A DNA stretch of 64,000 bases from the IMG/VR virus record IMGVR_UViG_3300029267_004155, one strand, 5' to 3'. The position numbers and the translations under genes are program-made. Under the pieces are notes generated by a model. The model was given only the letters and a program-made list of their open reading frames with translations, was not told the DNA's origin and searched no databases. Position 1 is the stretch's first letter, and the number at the start of each line of letters is the position of its first letter. Below are positions 4,144 through 13,895 of this stretch, piece after piece. The DNA comes from a virus (lineage: Duplodnaviria; Caudoviricetes).

Positions 4144-4351
4144 CGAACAGCTGATCTGCACCCGGTGCGGCGCCGAGATCGAGAGCATGATGGATGTGGG
4201 CTATCTGGGGCCGAGGGACCGGGGCGACAGGAGCTGCCACCCGTTCATGGAGTTCGAGACGGTCTGCCGGGAGTGCGAGGACAAAGGTGCCGAAGGCACG
4301 TCGGGAAAATCCGGCGACGGGGTTGGCAAGTCGGCGCCCGAGGGTGTATAA
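4133..4351 (+). CDS. small zinc-finger protein
   Basis: CTRC...CREC. Confidence 0.55.
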   Translation: MTPDEQLICTRCGAEIESMMDVGYLGPRDRGDRSCHPFMEFETVCRECEDKGAEGTSGKSGDGVGKSAPEGV

Positions 4352-4352
4352 T
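4323..4352 (+). promoter_or_regulatory. sigma70-like promoter for tRNA block 1
   Basis: TTGGCA-N18-TATAAT. Confidence 0.75.
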
Positions 4353-4420
4353 GGGATTTTGGACGACGGGTGAGGGTCCTGGCCAATTCCAGGGCTGGAC
4401 CCCACAAACCGAGAGAGACG

Positions 4421-4510
4421 ATGGACAAGCAGAGTCGCAACCTGATGTTGGCATGTTGTGGGCGGGGATATTCCTCGTTCCGCCTTACGCCTGCGTCCGG
4501 GCTGCGTTGA
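4421..4510 (+). CDS. leader peptide 1 (MDKQSRNLMLACCGRGYSSFRLTPASGLR), putative attenuator
   Basis: Short ORF between promoter and terminator; contains GCGTCCGGG (4493-4501) complementary to terminator 5' arm; codons match block-1 tRNAs. Confidence 0.75.
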   Translation: MDKQSRNLMLACCGRGYSSFRLTPASGLR

Positions 4511-4529
4511 CGCTCGTCGAAGCCCCTAG

Positions 4530-4568
4530 GCCCCCGGACGCGAAAGCCTCCGGGGGTTTTTCTGTTTC
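4530..4568 (+). terminator. intrinsic terminator (attenuator 1)
   Basis: GCCCCCGGA-CGC-GAAA-GCC-TCCGGGGGT followed by T-tract, directly before the first tRNA. Confidence 0.85.
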
Positions 4569-4569
4569 T

Positions 4570-4660
4570 GGAGGGCGACCGGCTGCACGAGGAGCTCGAT
4601 TTGAAATCGGGTAGGCCCTGGAAACGGGGTCTCGGGGTTGGAGTCCCCGGCCCTCCTCCA
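4570..4660 (+). tRNA. tRNA-Ser(TGA), atypical
   Basis: Cloverleaf, long variable arm, CCA; T-loop TTGGAGT, U73. Confidence 0.75.
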
Positions 4661-4669
4661 GGATTGAAA

Positions 4670-4754
4670 GGCCCAGTGGCGGAATTGGCATACGCGCCCG
4701 ATTCAAAATCGGGTCCCTTCGGGGATGGGAGTTCGACTCTCCCCTGGGCTACCA
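4670..4754 (+). tRNA. tRNA-Leu(CAA)
   Basis: Cloverleaf with CCA. Confidence 0.93.
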
Positions 4755-4816
4755 GCAACAAATGGAACGAGATAGCGAGTCCGGGATCGAGAGAAGGAGA
4801 TGATCGACGACGAGAT

Positions 4817-4902
4817 GCGTCGGCTGAGCATTTGGCGAGCTCCCCGGTCTGTAAAATCGGCGCCTTCGGGCTTTGATGGTTCGACTCCATCTCGGCGCAC
4901 CA
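4817..4902 (+). tRNA. tRNA-Tyr(GTA)
   Basis: Cloverleaf, variable arm, CCA. Confidence 0.88.
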
Positions 4903-4915
4903 ACAACTGAACAGT

Positions 4916-5002
4916 GGTCCCGTGCCGGAATTGGCATACGGCCCCGGTTGAGGGCCGGGGGCCCGAGAGGGCGTGGGAGTTCGAGTCTCCCCGGGGTCAC
5001 CA
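4916..5002 (+). tRNA. tRNA-Leu(GAG)
   Basis: Cloverleaf with CCA. Confidence 0.92.
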
Positions 5003-5010
5003 GGAATCAT

Positions 5011-5101
5011 GGAGAGCATCCGGCCGGATGAGGAGCGCGTTTCGAAAGCGCGTAGGTCCCGGGAACGGGGCTTCGGAGTTCGAGTCTCCGGCTCTCCGCC
5101 A
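5011..5101 (+). tRNA. tRNA-Ser(CGA)
   Basis: Cloverleaf, long variable arm, G73-CCA; atypical D-arm. Confidence 0.85.
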
Positions 5102-5199
5102 AGATGTGGACCGGGGCTTCAAACCTCGGTGCAACCCATTAACGTCTTGTGGGGTATGCAAAGGCGTGACTTCGCCGGGTGGAGAGAACCCGGCAACAA

Positions 5200-5285
5200 G
5201 CCCGGGTGGTGGAATTGGCAGACACGCTGCGCTCAGACCGCAGTGCCGAAAGGCGGTGAGGGTTCGACTCCCTCCTCGGGCACCA
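5200..5285 (+). tRNA. tRNA-Leu(CAG)
   Basis: Cloverleaf with CCA. Confidence 0.93.
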
Positions 5286-5294
5286 GATTTAGAC

Positions 5295-5371
5295 GCAGTG
5301 GTAGCTCAGCCAGGTAGAGCTTCCGCCTTCCAAGCGGAAGGTCGCGCGTTCGATTCGCGTCCACTGCACCA
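5295..5371 (+). tRNA. tRNA-Gly(TCC)
   Basis: Cloverleaf with CCA; A73. Confidence 0.92.
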
Positions 5372-5387
5372 TTGATAGGAGGAAGGA

Positions 5388-5564
5388 GTGAGGGCGCCAA
5401 ACTCGGTGATACGCGAGCGACTTGACCGTTGGTGCAAGCCGTGTCGTAAGATGGACGCCAAGGCGATGGTGTGCTTGGTGGAGAGGTGCAACGTCAGACG
5501 AAAGGCGTCGTTGGCAGAAGAGTCGTGCCCGATGGGTTTCTGGGGGAAGTACGAGGAGATTTGA
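5388..5564 (+). CDS. small Cys-rich protein (R..CxxC..C..C..K..CP..W pattern)
   Basis: GGAGGAAGGA RBS, GTG start, 58 aa; absent from the ORF track. Confidence 0.65.
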   Translation: MRAPNSVIRERLDRWCKPCRKMDAKAMVCLVERCNVRRKASLAEESCPMGFWGKYEEI

Positions 5565-5569
5565 ATAGT

Positions 5570-5660
5570 GGAGAGCGTCCGGATGGACGAGGAGTCGGTT
5601 TGCTAAACCGGTAGGCCCTGGAAACGGGGTTTCGGGGTTCGATTCCCCGGCTCTCCGCCA
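5570..5660 (+). tRNA. tRNA-Ser(GCT)
   Basis: Cloverleaf, long variable arm, CCA. Confidence 0.87.
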
Positions 5661-5738
5661 AAGATTGTGTCCCGACCGGTGCTCGGGCTTGGCAGCCCGA
5701 CGGGTCCAAACGCCCGGCCAGAACTGGAAGGGACTTTC

Positions 5739-5815
5739 GGTGAGGTAGCTCAGTCCGGTAGAGCACTCGGTTGAAGCCCGAGGCGTCGTTGGTTCGATTC
5801 CGACTCTCACCACCA
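5739..5815 (+). tRNA. tRNA-Phe(GAA)
   Basis: Cloverleaf with CCA. Confidence 0.93.
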
Positions 5816-5820
5816 ATTTG

Positions 5821-5904
5821 GCCCGAGTGGCGGAATGGCAGACGCGGCCGGTTTAAGTTCGGCTGTCGAAAGGCGTGCAGGTTCGATCCCTGTCTCGGGC
5901 ACCA
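5821..5904 (+). tRNA. tRNA-Leu(TAA)
   Basis: Cloverleaf with CCA. Confidence 0.92.
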
Positions 5905-5906
5905 AG

Positions 5907-5930
5907 GTGTAGCAGTGTAGCAGTGTAGCA
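5907..5930. repeat. tandem repeat (GTGTAGCA)x3
   Basis: Three exact copies in a tRNA spacer. Confidence 0.9.
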
Positions 5931-5942
5931 AAGGAGATTTTT

Positions 5943-6018
5943 GGCGGGGTGGCTGAGAGGTTTAGGCGCGCGGTTGCAACCCGCGTTCATGAGGGTTCGA
6001 GTCCCTCCCCCGTCTCCA
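5943..6018 (+). tRNA. tRNA-Cys(GCA)
   Basis: Cloverleaf, U73, CCA. Confidence 0.92.
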
Positions 6019-6026
6019 TTTTCGAT

Positions 6027-6196
6027 GAGGCCGTCCACCTAATGGCAAGGGCCGGAGCGGAGCGCCGCATAGCCCGTCGAGGCGCAAGCGCGACGGGTGA
6101 CGCCTGCGAGTCCAAAGGGCTGTGACATGGCCAGCCACGCGGGCTGCGGAATGGGCAGGACGCACCGGGATGCGGGTTCGAGTCCCGTCGGCTTCA
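6027..6196 (+). ncRNA. tRNA-like RNA with ~100-nt structured insert replacing the anticodon loop
   Basis: Acceptor GAGGCCG/CGGCTTC, D-loop TAATGGCAA, T-arm GCGGG-TTCGAGT-CCCGT, CCGG/CCGG stem enclosing the insert. Confidence 0.65.
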
Positions 6197-6204
6197 GACT
6201 TTGA

Positions 6205-6295
6205 GGAGAGCATCCGGCTGCATGAGGAGCGCCGTTGGAAACGGCGTCGGTCCGGGAAACCGGGCTTCGGGGTTGGAGTCCCCGGCTCTCCGCCA
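6205..6295 (+). tRNA. tRNA-Ser(GGA), atypical elbow
   Basis: Cloverleaf, long variable arm, CCA; T-loop TTGGAGT. Confidence 0.82.
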
Positions 6296-6327
6296 GTATG
6301 TTAAGGGCAACCCAAAGGAGGTTGCTG

Positions 6328-6993
6328 ATGAAGATCGAGGGCTGTCGGGTGGCCGCGGCGATGGTCGTCTATCACACCTACGGCCTGATGAGGAAGGCGG
6401 TGGCGTCGGTGAGGAGGTTCTATCCGGACATCGACTTCTTCGTGGTGGACAACACCGAGGGGGTCGCTCCGAGGAACGTCAGGAAATGGGCGAAGAGGAA
6501 CCGGGTGAGGCTTATCCGGGTGGGGTCCAACATCGGCCATGGGCCGGGGATGAACGTGGCGCTGTGGGCGACGGAGGCCGACGTGCTGCTGATGCTGGAC
6601 AGCGATACGGAGATGTACGAGCCGAACTTGCTGGAGGACGCCCTGGCGAAGGTCGGGGGCCGGAAGACCAGGTGGTACGGGATAGGGCCGGTCGCGCCGG
6701 TGAAAAGGCCGGTGGGAGGCGAGAAGGTTTCGTACCTTCATTCGTCGACGTGCCTCTTCCATGTCGGGTACTATCGGCGGTTCGAGCCGTTCACGGACCA
6801 CGGGCTTGCGCTGGTGGCGCCGATGTACGAGCTGAGGGTCAAGAGGATGGAGTCGATGCTGGTGGACTTCCCGGTCCAGGACTACGTGCATCACCTCTGG
6901 AGAGGAACCAGGGACTTTTGCAGGGGCCACCAGCTGGACAGGTCTTACGAAAGCCGGAAGTCGGCCTCCTGGTGGGAGCCTGGGAAGTTTTGA
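6328..6993 (+). CDS. glycosyltransferase family 2
   Basis: VVDN, N.GHG.GMN and LDSD motifs; AAGGAGG RBS. Confidence 0.85.
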   Translation: MKIEGCRVAAAMVVYHTYGLMRKAVASVRRFYPDIDFFVVDNTEGVAPRNVRKWAKRNRVRLIRVGSNIGHGPGMNVALWATEADVLLMLDSDTEMYEPNLLEDALAKVGGRKTRWYGIGPVAPVKRPVGGEKVSYLHSSTCLFHVGYYRRFEPFTDHGLALVAPMYELRVKRMESMLVDFPVQDYVHHLWRGTRDFCRGHQLDRSYESRKSASWWEPGKF

Positions 6994-6999
6994 TAATGA

Positions 7000-7077
7000 G
7001 CGCCCGTAGCTCAGTCTGAATAGAGCGCCCCGCTACGGACGGGGAAGTCGCAGGTTTGAATCCTGCCGGGCGTGCCA
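7000..7077 (+). tRNA. tRNA-Arg(ACG)
   Basis: Cloverleaf with CCA; D-loop GA with T-loop TTTGAAT. Confidence 0.88.
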
Positions 7078-7084
7078 ACTTTGA

Positions 7085-7160
7085 GGACCTGTAGTTCAGT
7101 TGGAAGAACATCGGTCTCCGAAGCCGAAGGTCGCGGGTTCGAGTCCCGCCGGGTCCTCCA
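7085..7160 (+). tRNA. tRNA-Arg(CCG)
   Basis: Cloverleaf with CCA. Confidence 0.92.
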
Positions 7161-7167
7161 GAATTAT

Positions 7168-7244
7168 CCGTCTGTAGCTCAGTTGGTTAGAGCGGTCGTC
7201 TCATACGCGACAGGTTGTAGGTTCGATCCCTACCAGACGGACCA
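7168..7244 (+). tRNA. tRNA-Met(CAT), elongator-type
   Basis: Cloverleaf with CCA, paired 1:72. Confidence 0.88.
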
Positions 7245-7347
7245 TCCTCTTTGAAGACGGGCCTCTGGCGGTGTACAATAGGCCAGGAGGTGCGCCGCGA
7301 GGCTTGAGGCGAGGTGACGATCGACGACTACGAGAAGGAGCGGGGCG

Positions 7348-7971
7348 ATGACGGGAGTGCTTGACAGGCGGGTCCTGGTGCTTGACGGCTCGTGGAGGCC
7401 GGTGGACGTGACGAACGTGGTCGGGGCCCTGTGCAAGGTGTGCGCGGGGAAGGCCGACGTCGTCGACAATGACTACTCCCTCTACGGCTTCGAGGAGTGG
7501 GTCGAGAGCTGGTCCGACGCGGCCAGGGCCGCGGAGATGGCCGAGTCGGGGCGCCCCCTCGTGCGTTCCAGGAGCTTCGCCTTCCCGGCGCCGGAGGTCA
7601 TCCGGCTCGTCCGGAAGGTCCGCTTCTGGCGTCGTCGGGCCAAGCTCTGCCGGAAGGCGATCTTCGCCCGCGACCGGAACGTCTGTCAGTACTGCGGCAA
7701 GAAGCTGCCGGCCTCCAAGCTCAACATCGACCACGTGGTCCCCAAGTCCAGGGGTGGAGGCACGACCTGGGAGAACCTGGTTCTCTCGTGCGTGAGGTGC
7801 AACCACAAGAAGGACAGCCGGACGCCCAGGGAGGCGGGCCTGACGCTCCTGAGGGAGCCGAGGGAGCCGCACTGGGCCGTCGTCAACAGGCGTGGCATCC
7901 TGAGGGACCCTCCCAGGTCGTGGGAGGACTTCCTCGGCGCCATGTACTGGGACGTCGAGCTGGAGGGCTGA
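7348..7971 (+). CDS. HNH endonuclease (McrA-like)
   Basis: RDRNVCQYCG...IDHVVPKSRGG...ENLVLSCVRCNHKK. Confidence 0.95.
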   Translation: MTGVLDRRVLVLDGSWRPVDVTNVVGALCKVCAGKADVVDNDYSLYGFEEWVESWSDAARAAEMAESGRPLVRSRSFAFPAPEVIRLVRKVRFWRRRAKLCRKAIFARDRNVCQYCGKKLPASKLNIDHVVPKSRGGGTTWENLVLSCVRCNHKKDSRTPREAGLTLLREPREPHWAVVNRRGILRDPPRSWEDFLGAMYWDVELEG

Positions 7972-8003
7972 CGGGCCGGTTCTCGGAAAAATCTCCGAGG
8001 GGG

Positions 8004-8033
8004 CTGGTAAGACTGGCGTTGACGGCGTATGAT
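8004..8033 (+). promoter_or_regulatory. sigma70-like promoter for tRNA block 2
   Basis: CTGGTA-N18-TATGAT with the GGCG pre -10 context shared by other promoters here. Confidence 0.65.
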
Positions 8034-8048
8034 AATAGGCAAGGAGCA

Positions 8049-8129
8049 ATGTACTCAATGAACCCGATGGCCAGACACGAAGCGATCGAGCAGCCCGCGA
8101 ACGCGGGTGCCGGGGGTGCTGTGTTCTGA
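8049..8129 (+). CDS. leader peptide 2 (MYSMNPMARHEAIEQPANAGAGGAVF), putative attenuator
   Basis: AAGGAG RBS; GGGTGCCGGGGGT (8105-8117) is the perfect 13-nt complement of terminator arm 8147-8159; codons match block-2 tRNAs. Confidence 0.8.
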   Translation: MYSMNPMARHEAIEQPANAGAGGAVF

Positions 8130-8145
8130 CCCTGATAGGTCCAAG

Positions 8146-8186
8146 GACCCCCGGCACCCCGAAAAGGGCGTCGGGGGTTTTTCTTT
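8146..8186 (+). terminator. intrinsic terminator (attenuator 2)
   Basis: GACCCCCGGCACCCC-GAAAA-GGGCGTCGGGGGTT plus T-tract. Confidence 0.85.
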
Positions 8187-8222
8187 GGAGTCGAGAGAAG
8201 GAGGGCGAGTCACGAGCAGGAC

Positions 8223-8300
8223 GGGCCGGTAGCTCAGTTGGCTAAGAGCACCTGACTTGCAATCAGGATGTCCAGGGTTCGATCCCCTGTCGGTCCACCA
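8223..8300 (+). tRNA. tRNA-Ala(TGC)
   Basis: Cloverleaf, G3:U70, CCA. Confidence 0.94.
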
Positions 8301-8311
8301 ACAATTCAGAT

Positions 8312-8389
8312 GCGCCTCGGAGCTCGGTCAGGAAGAGCGCCCGGTCGTGGCCCGGGAGGCCGCGGGTTCGAGTCCCGTCGGGGCGCCCA
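8312..8389 (+). tRNA. tRNA-His(GTG)
   Basis: G-1:C73, CCA; C33. Confidence 0.85.
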
Positions 8390-8398
8390 GGATCATGC

Positions 8399-8476
8399 GG
8401 TGGCGTAGCTTAGTTGGCCGAAAGCGCTGTCCTGTCACGGCAGAGAACGAGGGTTCAAATCCCTTCGTCACCGCCA
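8399..8476 (+). tRNA. tRNA-Asp(GTC)
   Basis: Cloverleaf, G73-CCA. Confidence 0.92.
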
Positions 8477-8483
8477 ATATCAC

Positions 8484-8559
8484 GGCCACGTAGCTCAGCG
8501 GCAGGAGCGTCCGGTCCACACCCGGATGGTCGAAGGTTCGAGTCCTTCCGTGGTCACCA
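8484..8559 (+). tRNA. tRNA-Val(CAC)
   Basis: Cloverleaf with CCA; C33. Confidence 0.87.
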
Positions 8560-8565
8560 GTTCGA

Positions 8566-8639
8566 TGCCCGGTGGTGTAATGGCAGCACAGCTGGTTCTG
8601 GCCCAGTCGGTCAGGGTTCGAGTCCTTGCCGGGCAGCCA
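8566..8639 (+). tRNA. tRNA-Gln(CTG)
   Basis: U1:A72, cloverleaf, CCA. Confidence 0.93.
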
Positions 8640-8647
8640 GATATCGA

Positions 8648-8724
8648 GCGCCCGTAGCTCAGGGGATACGAGCAGCGCACTTCTAATGCGCGGGTCGAAG
8701 GTTCGAATCCTTCCGGGCGTGCCA
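8648..8724 (+). tRNA. tRNA-Arg(TCT)
   Basis: Cloverleaf with CCA. Confidence 0.93.
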
Positions 8725-8726
8725 AT

Positions 8727-8803
8727 GGGCGGTTAGTTCAGATGGCTAGAACGTCAGCTCGACATGCTGAAGGTTGCGAGTTCGAGTCTCGCACCGCCCA
8801 CCA
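8727..8803 (+). tRNA. tRNA-Val(GAC)
   Basis: Cloverleaf with CCA; C33. Confidence 0.88.
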
Positions 8804-8834
8804 TCAGTCAAGGAGAGAGGCGAGAGCAACATGT

Positions 8835-8911
8835 CGGCCCATAGCTCAGTTGGTAAGAGCGAACGGCTGATAACCGTTAGGTCGGAGGTTCGATTCCTCC
8901 TGGGCCGACCA
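8835..8911 (+). tRNA. tRNA-Ile(GAT)
   Basis: Cloverleaf with CCA. Confidence 0.94.
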
Positions 8912-8925
8912 ACAATTGAATATGT

Positions 8926-9000
8926 GTCCCCATCGTCTAGCGGCCAGGATGCGAGGCCCTCAACCTCGTGACGCCGGTTCGAGTCCGGCTGGGGATGCCA
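8926..9000 (+). tRNA. tRNA-Glu(CTC)
   Basis: Cloverleaf with CCA; C33. Confidence 0.9.
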
Positions 9001-9112
9001 GGATTGAGGGCTGCAATATGGCCGGAAAGCAAGTCGCGGGCTTTGCCGAGTTCCAAGACGCGCAGAAGCGGGTAGACGGCAGTCCTGGGGGAGCGGCAAA
9101 CTCCCCCGAACT

Positions 9113-9189
9113 CGGGATGTGGCTCAGTCTGGTAGAGCGTCCGGCTGGGGGCCGGAAGGTCGCAGGTTCGATTCCTGCCATCCCGACCA
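9113..9189 (+). tRNA. tRNA-Pro(GGG)
   Basis: Cloverleaf with CCA. Confidence 0.94.
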
Positions 9190-9199
9190 TAGACTTGAG

Positions 9200-9278
9200 A
9201 GCGGGGTGAATGTCGATTTGGTAAGACGCCAGGCTCATAACCTGGAGCATGTGGGTTCAACTCCCACCCCCGCCACCA
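9200..9278 (+). tRNA. tRNA-fMet(CAT), initiator-type
   Basis: A1xC72 mismatch, CAT anticodon, CCA. Confidence 0.82.
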
Positions 9279-9343
9279 ATATCGGGACGTGACGAGCGGT
9301 TTGACTCCGTCGCCTGAAGCGTGAATGGGCAAGCGTCCCACTT

Positions 9344-9418
9344 GGCCCCATCGTCTAGTGGCAAGGACGTCGGGTTTTCATCCCGGAGACGGGGGTTCGA
9401 TTCCCCCTGGGGCTACCA
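9344..9418 (+). tRNA. tRNA-Glu(TTC)
   Basis: Cloverleaf with CCA. Confidence 0.93.
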
Positions 9419-9426
9419 GTTTTAGA

Positions 9427-9498
9427 TGGCCCGTAGCTCAGCGGTAGAGCATGCGACTCATAATTGCGGGGTCCTCGGTTCAATCCCGAGCGGGCCAA
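9427..9498 (+). tRNA. tRNA-Ile2/Met(CAT)
   Basis: Cloverleaf; anticodon arm GCGA-CTCATAA-TTGC resembles Ile2; ends CTA rather than CCA. Confidence 0.8.
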
Positions 9499-9667
9499 CT
9501 AGTTTTTTGTTGCGATGATGGCCGGTACCGGCGAGGGAAAGTCATCAGATGGGCGCCAACCGGGTATTGCTCGGAAGAAGGCACTGTCGGAAATCGGTGG
9601 TGGGGTGACGTCCGAAGCCGCCGTTCGCCGACGCCCGTTCCGTCTGGCGGCGGCCGCGACATCTTAT

Positions 9668-9744
9668 CGGGATGTGGCTCAGTCTGGTAGAGCGCCTCGT
9701 TCGGGGCGAGGAAGCCGGAGGTTCAAATCCTCTCATCCCGACCA
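9668..9744 (+). tRNA. tRNA-Pro(CGG)
   Basis: Cloverleaf with CCA. Confidence 0.94.
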
Positions 9745-9749
9745 GTTTT

Positions 9750-9826
9750 CGGGCGGTGGCGCAGTTTGGAAGCGCGCGGCGTTTGGGGCGCTGAGGTCGC
9801 CGGTTCGAGCCCGGCCCGCCCGACCA
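9750..9826 (+). tRNA. tRNA-Pro(TGG)
   Basis: Cloverleaf with CCA. Confidence 0.92.
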
Positions 9827-10006
9827 GTCTCGGGATGTGTCCAGACGTGGAGAAACTGGACCGCAAAAACAAAAAACTCTCGCAGTAACGAGACCCGAAA
9901 GGGATAGGAAGTGAGGAAACTGCGTCAACAACACTCGGCCTCCGTAGCTCTGGGCGCTTACACCTACGGACCTTTTCGCAGGCAGGAAGATGGAGGAAGA
10001 CGATTG

Positions 10007-10894
10007 ATGGACCTGATAGTGGAAACCGACATCGGGCACGATCCCGACGACTACTTCACGCTGTGCCACCTGCACGCCGCGGGTGTCAGGATCAGGGCGA
10101 TCCTCGTCTCTCCCGGACACCGGTACCAGGTCGCCATCGCGAGGGCCTTCTGCGCGGAGGTCGGCCTGGATGTCCCTGTCGGGATCGCGAAGGAGACGAG
10201 CGTCGTCAAGACCGGAGGGACGTCGTTCCACATGGCGCTCCTGAGGAAGATGGGACATCCGACCGAGGCGGACCCCGACGGCTTCGGCCACGAGCTTCTG
10301 GGCGGGGTTCTCGAGGACCATCCGGACAGCGACGTCTTCATCTGCGGGCCGGTGAAGAACGTGGGCCGCTACATGATCGAGCATCCGGAGAGGGAGTTCG
10401 GGCGGGTCACGATGCAGGGTGGCTTTCTGGGATACGACCTTCATGGCCATGACGTCGAGAGGCTTCCCAAGTTCAAGGGCAAGGTGGCCGTGCCTACCTT
10501 CAACTTGAACGGGTCGAAGGACGAGGGCTTGTTCCTGGCGTCGCGGGCGAAGGTCGGGGACCTGAGGTTCGTCGGCAAGAACGTCTGTCACACGATCCTG
10601 TACGACAGGGCGAGGCACGAGTGGATGAGGCGCAGGAAGCCTTCCTGCCGGGCGATGGAGCTGTTCATGGAAGGCATGGACCTCTATCTCTACGGGAAGA
10701 GGCACCGGGAGAAGAAGTTCCACGACCCGACCGCTGCCGTGTGCCATCTGCATCCCGAGATCGGGACCTGGGTTGGCGGAAGGTTGTACCGGGAGGGAGG
10801 CTGGTGGGGGACGAAGGTCGAGGAGGGGACGAACACCAGGGTCTTGGCCGATGTTGACCGGGAGGGGCTTTGGGACTTTATCAGAGGGTGTTAG
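10007..10894 (+). CDS. nucleoside hydrolase-like protein (IU-NH fold)
   Basis: ETDIGHDPDD Asp cluster, GPVKN, MQGG, TFN and HDP motifs. Confidence 0.85.
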   Translation: MDLIVETDIGHDPDDYFTLCHLHAAGVRIRAILVSPGHRYQVAIARAFCAEVGLDVPVGIAKETSVVKTGGTSFHMALLRKMGHPTEADPDGFGHELLGGVLEDHPDSDVFICGPVKNVGRYMIEHPEREFGRVTMQGGFLGYDLHGHDVERLPKFKGKVAVPTFNLNGSKDEGLFLASRAKVGDLRFVGKNVCHTILYDRARHEWMRRRKPSCRAMELFMEGMDLYLYGKRHREKKFHDPTAAVCHLHPEIGTWVGGRLYREGGWWGTKVEEGTNTRVLADVDREGLWDFIRGC

Positions 10895-10913
10895 GGCCCG
10901 TCCGGCCATGGAT

Positions 10914-10987
10914 TGCCCCGTGGTGTAATGGCAGCACAAGTGTCTTTGGAGCACTCGGTTCTGGTTCGAGTCCAGGCGGGGCAGCCA
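10914..10987 (+). tRNA. tRNA-Gln(TTG)
   Basis: Cloverleaf with CCA. Confidence 0.93.
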
Positions 10988-11049: not shown

Positions 11050-11078
11050 TTGGCAAATTCGGGCGAGCGGCGTATAAT
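11050..11078 (+). promoter_or_regulatory. sigma70-like promoter for tRNA block 3
   Basis: TTGGCA-N17-TATAAT. Confidence 0.8.
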
Positions 11079-11102
11079 AAGGCAACGAAAGGCAACTACG
11101 TC

Positions 11103-11186
11103 ATGCTGACGGGAACCACAACGAAAGACAATACCTGGGGCGGCAAGCCCGCCCACGGGGGTCTTTCGCTTGGAGTTCAAGCGTAG
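11103..11186 (+). CDS. leader peptide 3 (MLTGTTTKDNTWGGKPAHGGLSLGVQA), putative attenuator
   Basis: GAAAGG RBS; CGGGGGTCT (11156-11164) complementary to terminator arm AGACCCCCG (11207-11215); codons match block-3 tRNAs. Confidence 0.78.
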   Translation: MLTGTTTKDNTWGGKPAHGGLSLGVQA

Positions 11187-11206
11187 ACGGTGGCGAGCGC
11201 GCTGTG

Positions 11207-11243
11207 AGACCCCCGGCCCGAAAGGGCGCGGGGGTTTTTCTTT
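11207..11243 (+). terminator. intrinsic terminator (attenuator 3)
   Basis: GACCCCCG-GCCC-GAAA-GGGC-G-CGGGGGTT plus T-tract abutting tRNA-Gly. Confidence 0.85.
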
Positions 11244-11319
11244 GCGGCAGTAGCTCAGTCGGAAGAGCACCTGCTTGCCAAGCAGGAGGCCACGGGTTCG
11301 AGCCCCGTCTGTCGCACCA
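11244..11319 (+). tRNA. tRNA-Gly(GCC)
   Basis: Cloverleaf with CCA; A73. Confidence 0.92.
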
Positions 11320-11330
11320 GGTTTCATGAT

Positions 11331-11407
11331 AGGTCCGTAGCTCAATCGGCTAGAGCACCGGTCTCCAAAACCGGCGGTTCTCGGTTCGACCCCGAGCGGG
11401 CCTGCCA
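11331..11407 (+). tRNA. tRNA-Trp(CCA)
   Basis: Cloverleaf, G73-CCA. Confidence 0.93.
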
Positions 11408-11411
11408 AGAA

Positions 11412-11487
11412 CGGCTCGTAGCTCAGTTGGTAGAGCATCCGCCTTTTAAGCGGAACGCCGAGGGTTCGAGTCCCTCCGAGCCGACCA
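11412..11487 (+). tRNA. tRNA-Lys(TTT)
   Basis: Cloverleaf with CCA. Confidence 0.93.
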
Positions 11488-11501
11488 GAAATTCGGAGCG
11501 A

Positions 11502-11540
11502 GTGGAAAACCTTGCTCGTTCGGCAATGTAGGGTGGAGAC
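11502..11540 (+). promoter_or_regulatory. conserved motif copy 1 (GTGGAAAA-N12-GGCAAT..GGG)
   Basis: One of 9 copies with invariant spacing. Confidence 0.75.
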
Positions 11541-11568
11541 GAGGTTCAACAGAAGGAGATGTGATCGA

Positions 11569-11642
11569 GGTTCCGTAGCTTAGAGGTAGAGCGGGCGGCT
11601 CGGACCGCGTGGCCGCAGGTTCGAGCCCTGCCGGGACCTCCA
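11569..11642 (+). ncRNA. tRNA-like RNA with 6-nt anticodon loop
   Basis: Intact acceptor, D and T arms plus CCA; GCGG-CTCGGA-CCGC. Confidence 0.7.
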
Positions 11643-11663
11643 ACTCGACAGGAGAGTCTATTC

Positions 11664-11740
11664 GCACCCGTAGCTCAGTTGGCTAGAGCGGCTGACTCTT
11701 AATCAGCAGGTTCTCGGTTCGAACCCGAGCGGGTGTGCCA
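11664..11740 (+). tRNA. tRNA-Lys(CTT)
   Basis: Cloverleaf with CCA. Confidence 0.94.
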
Positions 11741-11751
11741 ACAATTCAGAT

Positions 11752-11847
11752 GCCGATGTGGTGTAATGGTAGCACACCGGGTAAACCGGAGGTTTTCCTC
11801 GATCAGCGCGCGTAGTCGAGGCGGTTCAAGTCCAGACATCGGCTCCA
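11752..11847 (+). ncRNA. tRNA-like RNA with shortened anticodon arm and a hairpin inserted at the T-stem
   Basis: GCCGATG/CATCGGC-T-CCA, canonical D-arm, CCGG-GTAAA-CCGG, extra CCTCGAT/GTCGAGG hairpin. Confidence 0.7.
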
Positions 11848-11965
11848 ACAACTTAGGCGACACCTGCCTGTCCGAAGAAGGTCCGGCGACGAGCGGGGAC
11901 GAACCCGTGGACGACCAGGCTGGAGGAGAAGTGGTGTGACTCGGGTGAGAGCAGGCCCGCATTAA

Positions 11966-12042
11966 GCCCGGATAGCTCAGTGGCTAAGAGCAGCCGATTC
12001 GTAATCGGCAGGTCGAGGGTTCGAGTCCCTCTCTGGGCTCCA
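11966..12042 (+). tRNA. tRNA-Thr(CGT)
   Basis: Cloverleaf with CCA. Confidence 0.93.
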
Positions 12043-12045
12043 GAC

Positions 12046-12119
12046 TCCCCCATGGTGTAATGGTAGCACGTAGGACTGTTAATCCTTTGGTCCTGGTTCG
12101 AGTCCAGGTGGGGGAACCA
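12046..12119 (+). tRNA. tRNA-Asn(GTT)
   Basis: Cloverleaf with CCA. Confidence 0.92.
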
Positions 12120-13625: not shown

Positions 13626-13702
13626 AGGTGTGTAGCTCAGTGGTAGAGCGTCCCGGCTCTTTTTCCGGGAGGACGCAGGTTCGAGCCCTGCCTCACCTGC
13701 CA
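13626..13702 (+). ncRNA. tRNA-like RNA with 6-bp stem and 8-nt anticodon loop (copy A)
   Basis: TCCCGG-CTCTTTTT-CCGGGA, canonical D and T arms, GCCA end. Confidence 0.7.
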
Positions 13703-13787: not shown

Positions 13788-13895
13788 TTTGGTTTTCGAC
13801 CCCTGTCGGTTCGACTCCGACGTCCGGCTCCTATACTAGTTGCACGGGAGGCGGCCACACCGGTTGGAAGGGTGGGCCCGGGGGTCTTTCTTGAC

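Follow-up and report, generated by a model that had tools for sequence, protein, structure and literature searches.

The window analysed here, a 64,000-nt stretch of DNA from a virus (Duplodnaviria; Caudoviricetes; IMG/VR record IMGVR_UViG_3300029267_004155), carries a short ORF (leader 1) ahead of its first block of tRNA genes. Leader 1 is probably part of a ribosome-stalling, codon-specific transcription attenuator that would make tRNA block 1 on demand. An attenuator had been proposed in the original prediction, and this reading gains support from a well-placed antiterminator, a modelled switch at codons 20-22, three leaders each matched to its own block, and conservation with co-variation in related phages. 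The features are listed in Table 1.

Table 1. Features of the leader regions and tRNA blocks in the window
Feature	Positions	Strand	Evidence or remark
Sigma-70-type promoter: TTGGCA, 18 nt, TATAAT	4323-4352	+	11/12 consensus matches
5' untranslated hairpin	4370-4405	+	predicted fold
Weak ribosome-binding site	4411-4417	+	-3.9 kcal/mol vs anti-SD
Leader ORF 1, 29 sense codons, TGA stop	4421-4510	+	homologous ORFs in L179, L181, L030
Predicted sensing zone, codons 5-22	4433-4486	+	16/18 codons read by block-1 tRNAs
Internal hairpin, candidate RNA-polymerase pause signal	~4458-4484	+	-14.1 kcal/mol; 64/2000 shuffles as good
Predicted antiterminator strand, codons 25-27	4493-4501	+	9 Watson-Crick pairs with 4533-4541 (terminator 5' arm)
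Intrinsic terminator, G+C hairpin and U tract	4529-4561	+	-23.4 kcal/mol; conserved in relatives
tRNA block 1, 15 tRNA genes	4570-7244	+	plus a small ORF and a family-2 glycosyltransferase gene
Leader 2 and terminator	8058-8185	+	ahead of tRNA block 2 (8223-10987)
Promoter, leader 3 (11103-11186), terminator	11050-11242	+	ahead of tRNA block 3 (11244-12119)

Organization of the tRNA array

The window is apparently part of a large phage genome encoding a NAD-dependent ligase, a CobS/CobT-like pair, an intein-bearing ATPase and a collagen-repeat fibre; its HNH protein is also found on a 298-kb metagenome contig. An independent assembly is identical to the array region over 9,745 bases, which excludes misassembly there; the genome is represented in SRR6963311 and ERZ27256773. 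The + strand between 4570 and 13964 carries about 40 tRNA genes in three blocks. In front of each block come a promoter-like site and a short ORF, followed by a G+C hairpin plus U tract. The leader ORFs escape gene callers (uncalled in L188). The sigma-70-type promoters point to the host polymerase, and the name Planctomycetota, carried by several cellular HNH relatives, gives a weak lead to the host. We located relatives via the HNH gene between blocks 1 and 2 together with the terminator pattern, and found homologous arrays in L179 (HNH 78% identical), L181 (HNH 56%), L030 (41% G+C, 181-kb contig) and L067.

Leader ORF 1 starts 70 nt past the promoter with no gene between them, and similar promoters lie ahead of leader 1 in L179, L181 and L030. 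In the window and in these three relatives, the tRNA genes are preceded by a promoter, a short ORF and an intrinsic terminator, in that order; no 5' hairpin was seen upstream of leader 1 of L181. The ribosome-binding site is weak, as had been claimed: at -3.9 kcal/mol it is among the weakest of 24 phage gene starts (median near -9 kcal/mol). This is no argument against translation of leader 1 because E. coli thrL scores even weaker (-2.4 kcal/mol) in the same calculation. An in-frame GTG at 4370, which lies inside the 5' hairpin and would have a leader of ~11 nt, was judged an unlikely start.

Leader 1 codons match the tRNAs of block 1

The first half of block 1 encodes Ser(TGA), Leu(CAA), Tyr, Leu(GAG), Ser(CGA), Leu(CAG), Gly(TCC) and Ser(GCT), the second half Phe, Leu(TAA), Cys, Ser(GGA), Arg(ACG), Arg(CCG) and an elongator-type Met. 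The original prediction that these tRNAs can decode codons 5-22 with two exceptions proved correct: under standard wobble rules, with CGC read via inosine at Arg(ACG) and GGG via Gly(TCC) wobble, 16/18 codons are readable by tRNAs encoded at 4570-7244, and only AAC (codon 7) and GCA (codon 11) are not. The count requires Arg(ACG), Arg(CCG) and Met(CAT) at 7000-7244 and falls to 12/18 without them. These three genes are located beyond the glycosyltransferase gene and a weak hairpin, and the same three genes directly follow the block in L179. ARAGORN detects Ser(TGA) at 4570 and Ser(GGA) at 6201 only below its default score. The synonymous codons noted at the outset are all present (Ser AGT/TCC/TCG, Leu CTG/TTG/CTT, Arg CGC/CGG), and those singled out as unusual are indeed minor members of their families among 11,461 phage codons (AGT 3%, TGT 20%, TAT 21%, CTT 11%, GGA 11%).

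Comparison with phage-wide codon usage, a check proposed with the original prediction, places the match beyond background. Block 1 can read 33% of the 11,461 phage coding codons, and 16 matches never occur among 10,883 coding windows of 18 codons. When the best 18-codon window is chosen afterwards, 16 is reached in 0/10,543 coding stretches of 28 codons and in 2.7e-4 of base-shuffled leaders; codons 2-22 taken as a whole give 16/21 matches against a background of 0.33 (p = 7e-5). All 15 block-1 tRNA genes have a cognate codon among codons 2-22; those of Ser(TGA) and Leu(TAA), TCG and TTG, require wobble. Full coverage of the 15 tRNAs occurs in 0 of ~10,800 coding windows of 21 codons, and at a frequency of 1.7e-5 when the array tRNAs are dealt randomly among the blocks. 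The control codons are related to the function of the downstream genes, as in an attenuator (16/21 codons; 15/15 tRNAs). Leader 1 lacks the tandem or repeated control codons for one amino acid that attenuators have: its only amino-acid tandems are TGT TGT and TCC TCG, and most tRNAs are represented by one codon.

Each leader matches its own block. Leader 1 matches blocks 1, 2 and 3 at 16/21, 3/21 and 2/21 codons; leader 2 at 1/13, 10/13 and 1/13; leader 3 at 2/14, 1/14 and 8/14, with 6/6 tRNAs covered. A joint permutation over the three leaders gave 0/300,000.

A predicted antiterminator is modelled as free at the control codons and covered at the stop

The terminator begins 20 nt past the stop codon of leader 1. 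To model the switch, we folded the nascent RNA ahead of a ribosome positioned at each codon. In this model, pairing between the terminator arm and the ORF is ~0.9 with the ribosome at codons 3-21 and ≤0.2 from codon 22 onward, and the last permissive codon is 20-22 across four footprint sizes (6-12 nt); thus, the run of matched codons ends where the modelled switch ends. The antiterminator is, in the model, exclusive with the terminator, free at the control codons and covered at the stop, as an attenuator demands. E. coli thrL, modelled as a control, has the same profile: it switches at the last of its Thr codons, and 18 nt separate its stop from the terminator. With no ribosome, the modelled terminator arm is 0.59 paired to the ORF, a mixed default state. 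In full-length equilibrium folds the terminator always wins, for leader 1 and thrL alike; the switch must therefore be kinetic, and we rejected full-transcript equilibrium folding as a test, the thrL control also giving a terminator probability of 1.0.

A 9-bp match in the last 27 nt is found in 0.2% of shuffled leaders. The pairing energy is within chance, as 196/2000 shuffled leaders pair as well (269 for L179, 112 for L181). It is only the place and the conservation of the leader 1 antiterminator that stand out. The hairpin claimed inside the leader is real, in a predicted register slightly different from that first given, and has counterparts at the same place in L179 (10/2000 shuffles) and L181 (2/2000). 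It ends 8 nt before the antiterminator strand, a spot at which pausing would be of use, and is no classic 1:2 protector, since the two do not overlap. A pause role for this candidate signal, to synchronise polymerase and ribosome, is plausible.

The leader design is conserved and tends to co-vary with tRNA content

Homologues of leader ORF 1 lie at 8132-8221 in L179, 4431-4535 in L181 and 5650-5733 in L030. All three relatives have a promoter, an ORF of 27-34 codons, an antiterminator around a common CCGG core and a terminator. Counted against each phage's own codons, zone matches are 17/23 in L179, 13/27 in L181 and 14/16 in L030 (binomial p = 2e-4, 0.013 and 4e-7), and leader 1 covers 16/16, 13/14 and 10/11 block-1 tRNAs, respectively. 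The U-ending codons AGT, TGT, TAT and CTT are present in 4/4 leaders 1. Between the window and L179, codons are identical at 9/11 conserved Leu/Ser/Arg/Gly sites, compared with 23/48 in the neighbouring HNH gene; part of this identity may stem from RNA structure. Two pairs of the L181 antiterminator are changed on both sides with pairing kept. Leader 2, whose antiterminator spans 13 bp, has homologues in L067, L179 and L181, and leader 3 has one in L181.

Where tRNA content differs, codon content tends to differ with it. In L030, a Trp gene in block 1 is accompanied by TGG in the zone, and Arg, Gly and Met are missing from both. Four L181 tRNAs belong to a different block from their window counterparts, and the leader of the L181 block holds a cognate codon each time: Arg(ACG) is in block 2, where leader 2 has CGC at the place of AGA in the window, and block 3 contains Arg(TCT), Val(GAC) and Gly(TCC), with AGA, GTC and GGG in leader 3. 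L181 also has Arg(CCT) in block 1 and AGG in leader 1. The co-variation is incomplete: L181 leader 1 retains CGC and GGG though those tRNAs moved, leader 3 of the window also has GGA, and L179 has AGG without a called Arg(CCT). Across four phages, compared without a tree, these patterns are suggestive of leader codons that largely follow tRNAs moved between blocks.

The attenuator design is not universal: no matched leader was seen for the arrays of L033 and L017 or for a second array in the L030 phage (G001). DNA patterns for leader 1, leader 2 and the terminator plus Ser gene had no match in viral contigs, a pattern search of genome contigs returned no attenuated arrays, and cultured phage records matched single tRNAs only. 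Searches with the 480-aa protein and with the protein upstream of the promoter found no relatives, and the HNH relatives P0006, P0007, P0014, P0016 and P0022 yielded no homologous array.

Alternative explanations

Leader 1 might instead sense translation speed or coupling in general, or allow a fixed level of read-through, with single tRNA types irrelevant in vivo. One codon per tRNA may indeed stall a ribosome too briefly, the ribosome-free default state is mixed, and an antiterminator of just 9 bp is no stronger than in shuffled leaders. A general sensor needs no block-specific codons, however, yet each of the three leaders matches its own block only and leader codons follow relocated tRNAs, which makes this explanation unlikely. 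The weak ribosome-binding site and the degenerate look of some array genes (6027-6199, 11569, 11752) would also fit a decaying or inactive remnant of an ancestral attenuator whose terminator is leaky or constitutively bypassed in this phage. We think this very unlikely, given that ORF, promoter, antiterminator and terminator are all intact, that 15/15 tRNAs are still covered and that its codons agree with those of L179 more often than do codons of the neighbouring gene.

T-box riboswitches likewise sense tRNA status in a codon-specific way through a choice between terminator and antiterminator, and differ in being ribosome-independent with one specifier codon. The codon-specific leader and the antiterminator of leader 1, features shared with T-boxes, could thus be taken for direct RNA sensing without a ribosome, in which tRNAs pair with leader codons and stabilise the antiterminator. 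This is hardly credible: no stem I with a specifier loop and no antiterminator bulge was recognised in leader 1, which had no Rfam T-box match at the gathering or E-value thresholds; the matched codons of four phages are all in one frame between start and stop; and 15 specifier loops would not nearly fit into a leader of 200 nt. Finally, an ordinary terminator of an upstream unit could have met an accidental short ORF. Block 1 reads 24/61 codons and the 18-codon window was picked afterwards, but the nulls corrected for this (0/10,543 and 2.7e-4), the repetition of the pattern in three blocks and four phages, and a promoter 70 nt before the ORF with no other gene between leave chance with practically no weight.

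Proposed mechanism and trigger

In the codon-specific attenuator that we favour, host RNA polymerase would start at the sigma-70-type promoter and probably pause past the internal hairpin while a ribosome loads on the leader. With all 15 tRNA types working, the ribosome would reach the stop codon and cover 4493-4501, and the terminator would form before the first tRNA gene. If any one tRNA were missing or uncharged, the ribosome would stall at its codon within positions 5-22; 4493-4501 would then pair with 4533-4541, blocking the terminator, and block 1 would be transcribed. The new tRNAs would relieve the stall, closing a negative feedback loop. Such a loop would be self-limiting, because its output is the sensed tRNA set itself. 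We infer that leader 1 is translated, that polymerase pauses on it and that termination is regulated. Attenuation of this kind presupposes coupling of transcription to translation, with a pausing polymerase and no phage nucleus. The Cys-rich small ORF (5388-5564) and the glycosyltransferase gene (6328-6993) that lie among the tRNA genes would be co-regulated with block 1.

The signal is most likely functional tRNA loss, because the leader has mostly one codon per tRNA type and extra tRNA is no cure for amino-acid starvation. One codon per type would suit severe loss of a single isoacceptor better than mild starvation. That the trigger is such a loss, for example through cleavage by a host defence nuclease or tRNA decay in infection, has in our view about an even chance of being right; among possible triggers, we infer tRNA cleavage by host defences to be the likeliest. 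Phage T5 tRNAs counter AriB of PARIS, a tRNA-cleaving defence (PMC12409363), and replacing damaged host tRNAs is a likely purpose here too; attenuation is not mentioned for the T5 tRNAs (PMC12409363). More tentatively, giant phages may use a multiplexed isoacceptor alarm, each leader testing the tRNA types of its own block once, so that a stall caused by host cleavage brings replacement tRNAs. If this were true, the host tRNAs whose loss the phage anticipates would be spelled out by its leader codons.

It has long been asked why phages have large tRNA arrays and at what point they draw on them. If the switch works as modelled, these arrays would be an inducible response to tRNA failure and not a constitutive codon-bias supplement. 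Attenuation would be extended from enzyme operons, where one to three amino acids are sensed, to a sensor with 15 inputs that puts out the very molecule it senses, and such a leader could serve as a biosensor for tRNA-targeting toxins and defences.

Comparison with known systems

Leader-peptide attenuators are found in enterobacterial amino-acid operons, ilvGMEDA among them. E. coli pheM-pheST has another such attenuator, which, like leader 1, controls the translation machinery by charged tRNA supply; it differs in that its output is a synthetase and in that it senses a single amino acid, with several Phe codons. With pheL-pheA (PMC3082878) and thrL, leader 1 shares a promoter, a short ORF, an antiterminator from the ORF end and a terminator ~20 nt past the stop; its internal hairpin is a candidate counterpart of their pause hairpin, and its modelled switch behaves like that of thrL. 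It also has the polarity of pheL, in which full translation leads to termination and stalling to read-through (PMC3082878). The pheL 1:2 stem includes the antiterminator strand, whereas the internal hairpin of leader 1 excludes it. The enterobacterial attenuators control biosynthetic enzymes and contain runs of codons for one to three amino acids; leader 1 precedes tRNA genes, samples eight amino acids and 15 tRNA types, mostly once, and resides in a phage. By sequence and modelling, leader 1 appears to have the sequence-testable structural features of a ribosome-mediated leader-peptide attenuator, except tandem control codons. What would be new is the target (tRNA genes), the breadth (8 amino acids, 15 tRNA types) and the setting (phage).

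The Anabaena trn operon is also a large, stress-induced tRNA array, silent until translation stress, and is controlled by the TrcR protein repressor at its promoter (PMC10272220). Unlike the control proposed for block 1, repression there is not codon-specific, and neither a leader nor attenuation is mentioned (PMC10272220). We found no published description of attenuation of tRNA genes in the literature searched, most subscription papers being outside its reach.

Additional elements of the arrays

The tRNA blocks are roughly sorted by the first letter of the codon, with many UNN readers and all long-arm tRNAs in block 1 and ANN readers in block 3. From known tRNA features, we take the three CAT genes of the array to be elongator Met-like (7168), initiator-like (9201) and Ile2-like (9427). 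The array contains two protein genes besides those of block 1. One, located between blocks 1 and 2, encodes an HNH nuclease (7348-7971) and has a promoter-like site to itself (7251-7279); the other is nucleoside-hydrolase-like (9995-10894).

A tRNA-like element at 6027-6199 has a G3-U70 pair and A73 (alanine identity), a T arm and a D-loop-like stretch; ~95 nt replace the anticodon arm, CCA is not encoded, and no Rfam or tmRNA match was obtained. The unmatched leader codon GCA specifies Ala and is GCG at the same place in L179, where positions 9706-9782 hold an Ala-like gene whose anticodon loop is deformed. In L067 (422-720), a leader-2 homologue lies before an Ala tRNA whose anticodon, AGC, is rare in bacteria; this leader 2 has GCC where the window, with Ala(TGC), has GCG. 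An isolated hairpin at 5109-5131 has a 7-nt loop with a TCA triplet and resembles a Sec/opal-suppressor anticodon arm, the rest of the tRNA being missing.

Among the tRNAs of block 3 (11244-12119) are those for Lys, Thr and Asn, the same three types that T5 requires against PARIS (PMC12409363). Deformed tRNA-like genes lie at 11569 and 11752, and two similar ones, with 8-nt loops, at 13626 and 13709. A low-scoring Thr(TGT) is at 13895 and leader 3 has ACC and ACA; block 3 of L181 has intact Thr(GGT) and Thr(TGT).

L179 (8118-8126) and L181 (4423-4434) each have a start-codon mini-ORF, two or three codons long, immediately ahead of leader 1 or overlapping its start; the window has none. L017 has a short ORF and a terminator of similar shape before its tRNA array (1600-1740), with codons that have no obvious tRNA match, and a second promoter-like site past the terminator. 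Within block 1 of L181, adjoining a TROVE (Ro60) gene, are circularly permuted tRNA-like modules (T arm before D arm) and a repeated motif (4720-4860, 6676-6760, 7460-7780, 7759-9591), which presumably resemble YrlA-type Y RNAs.
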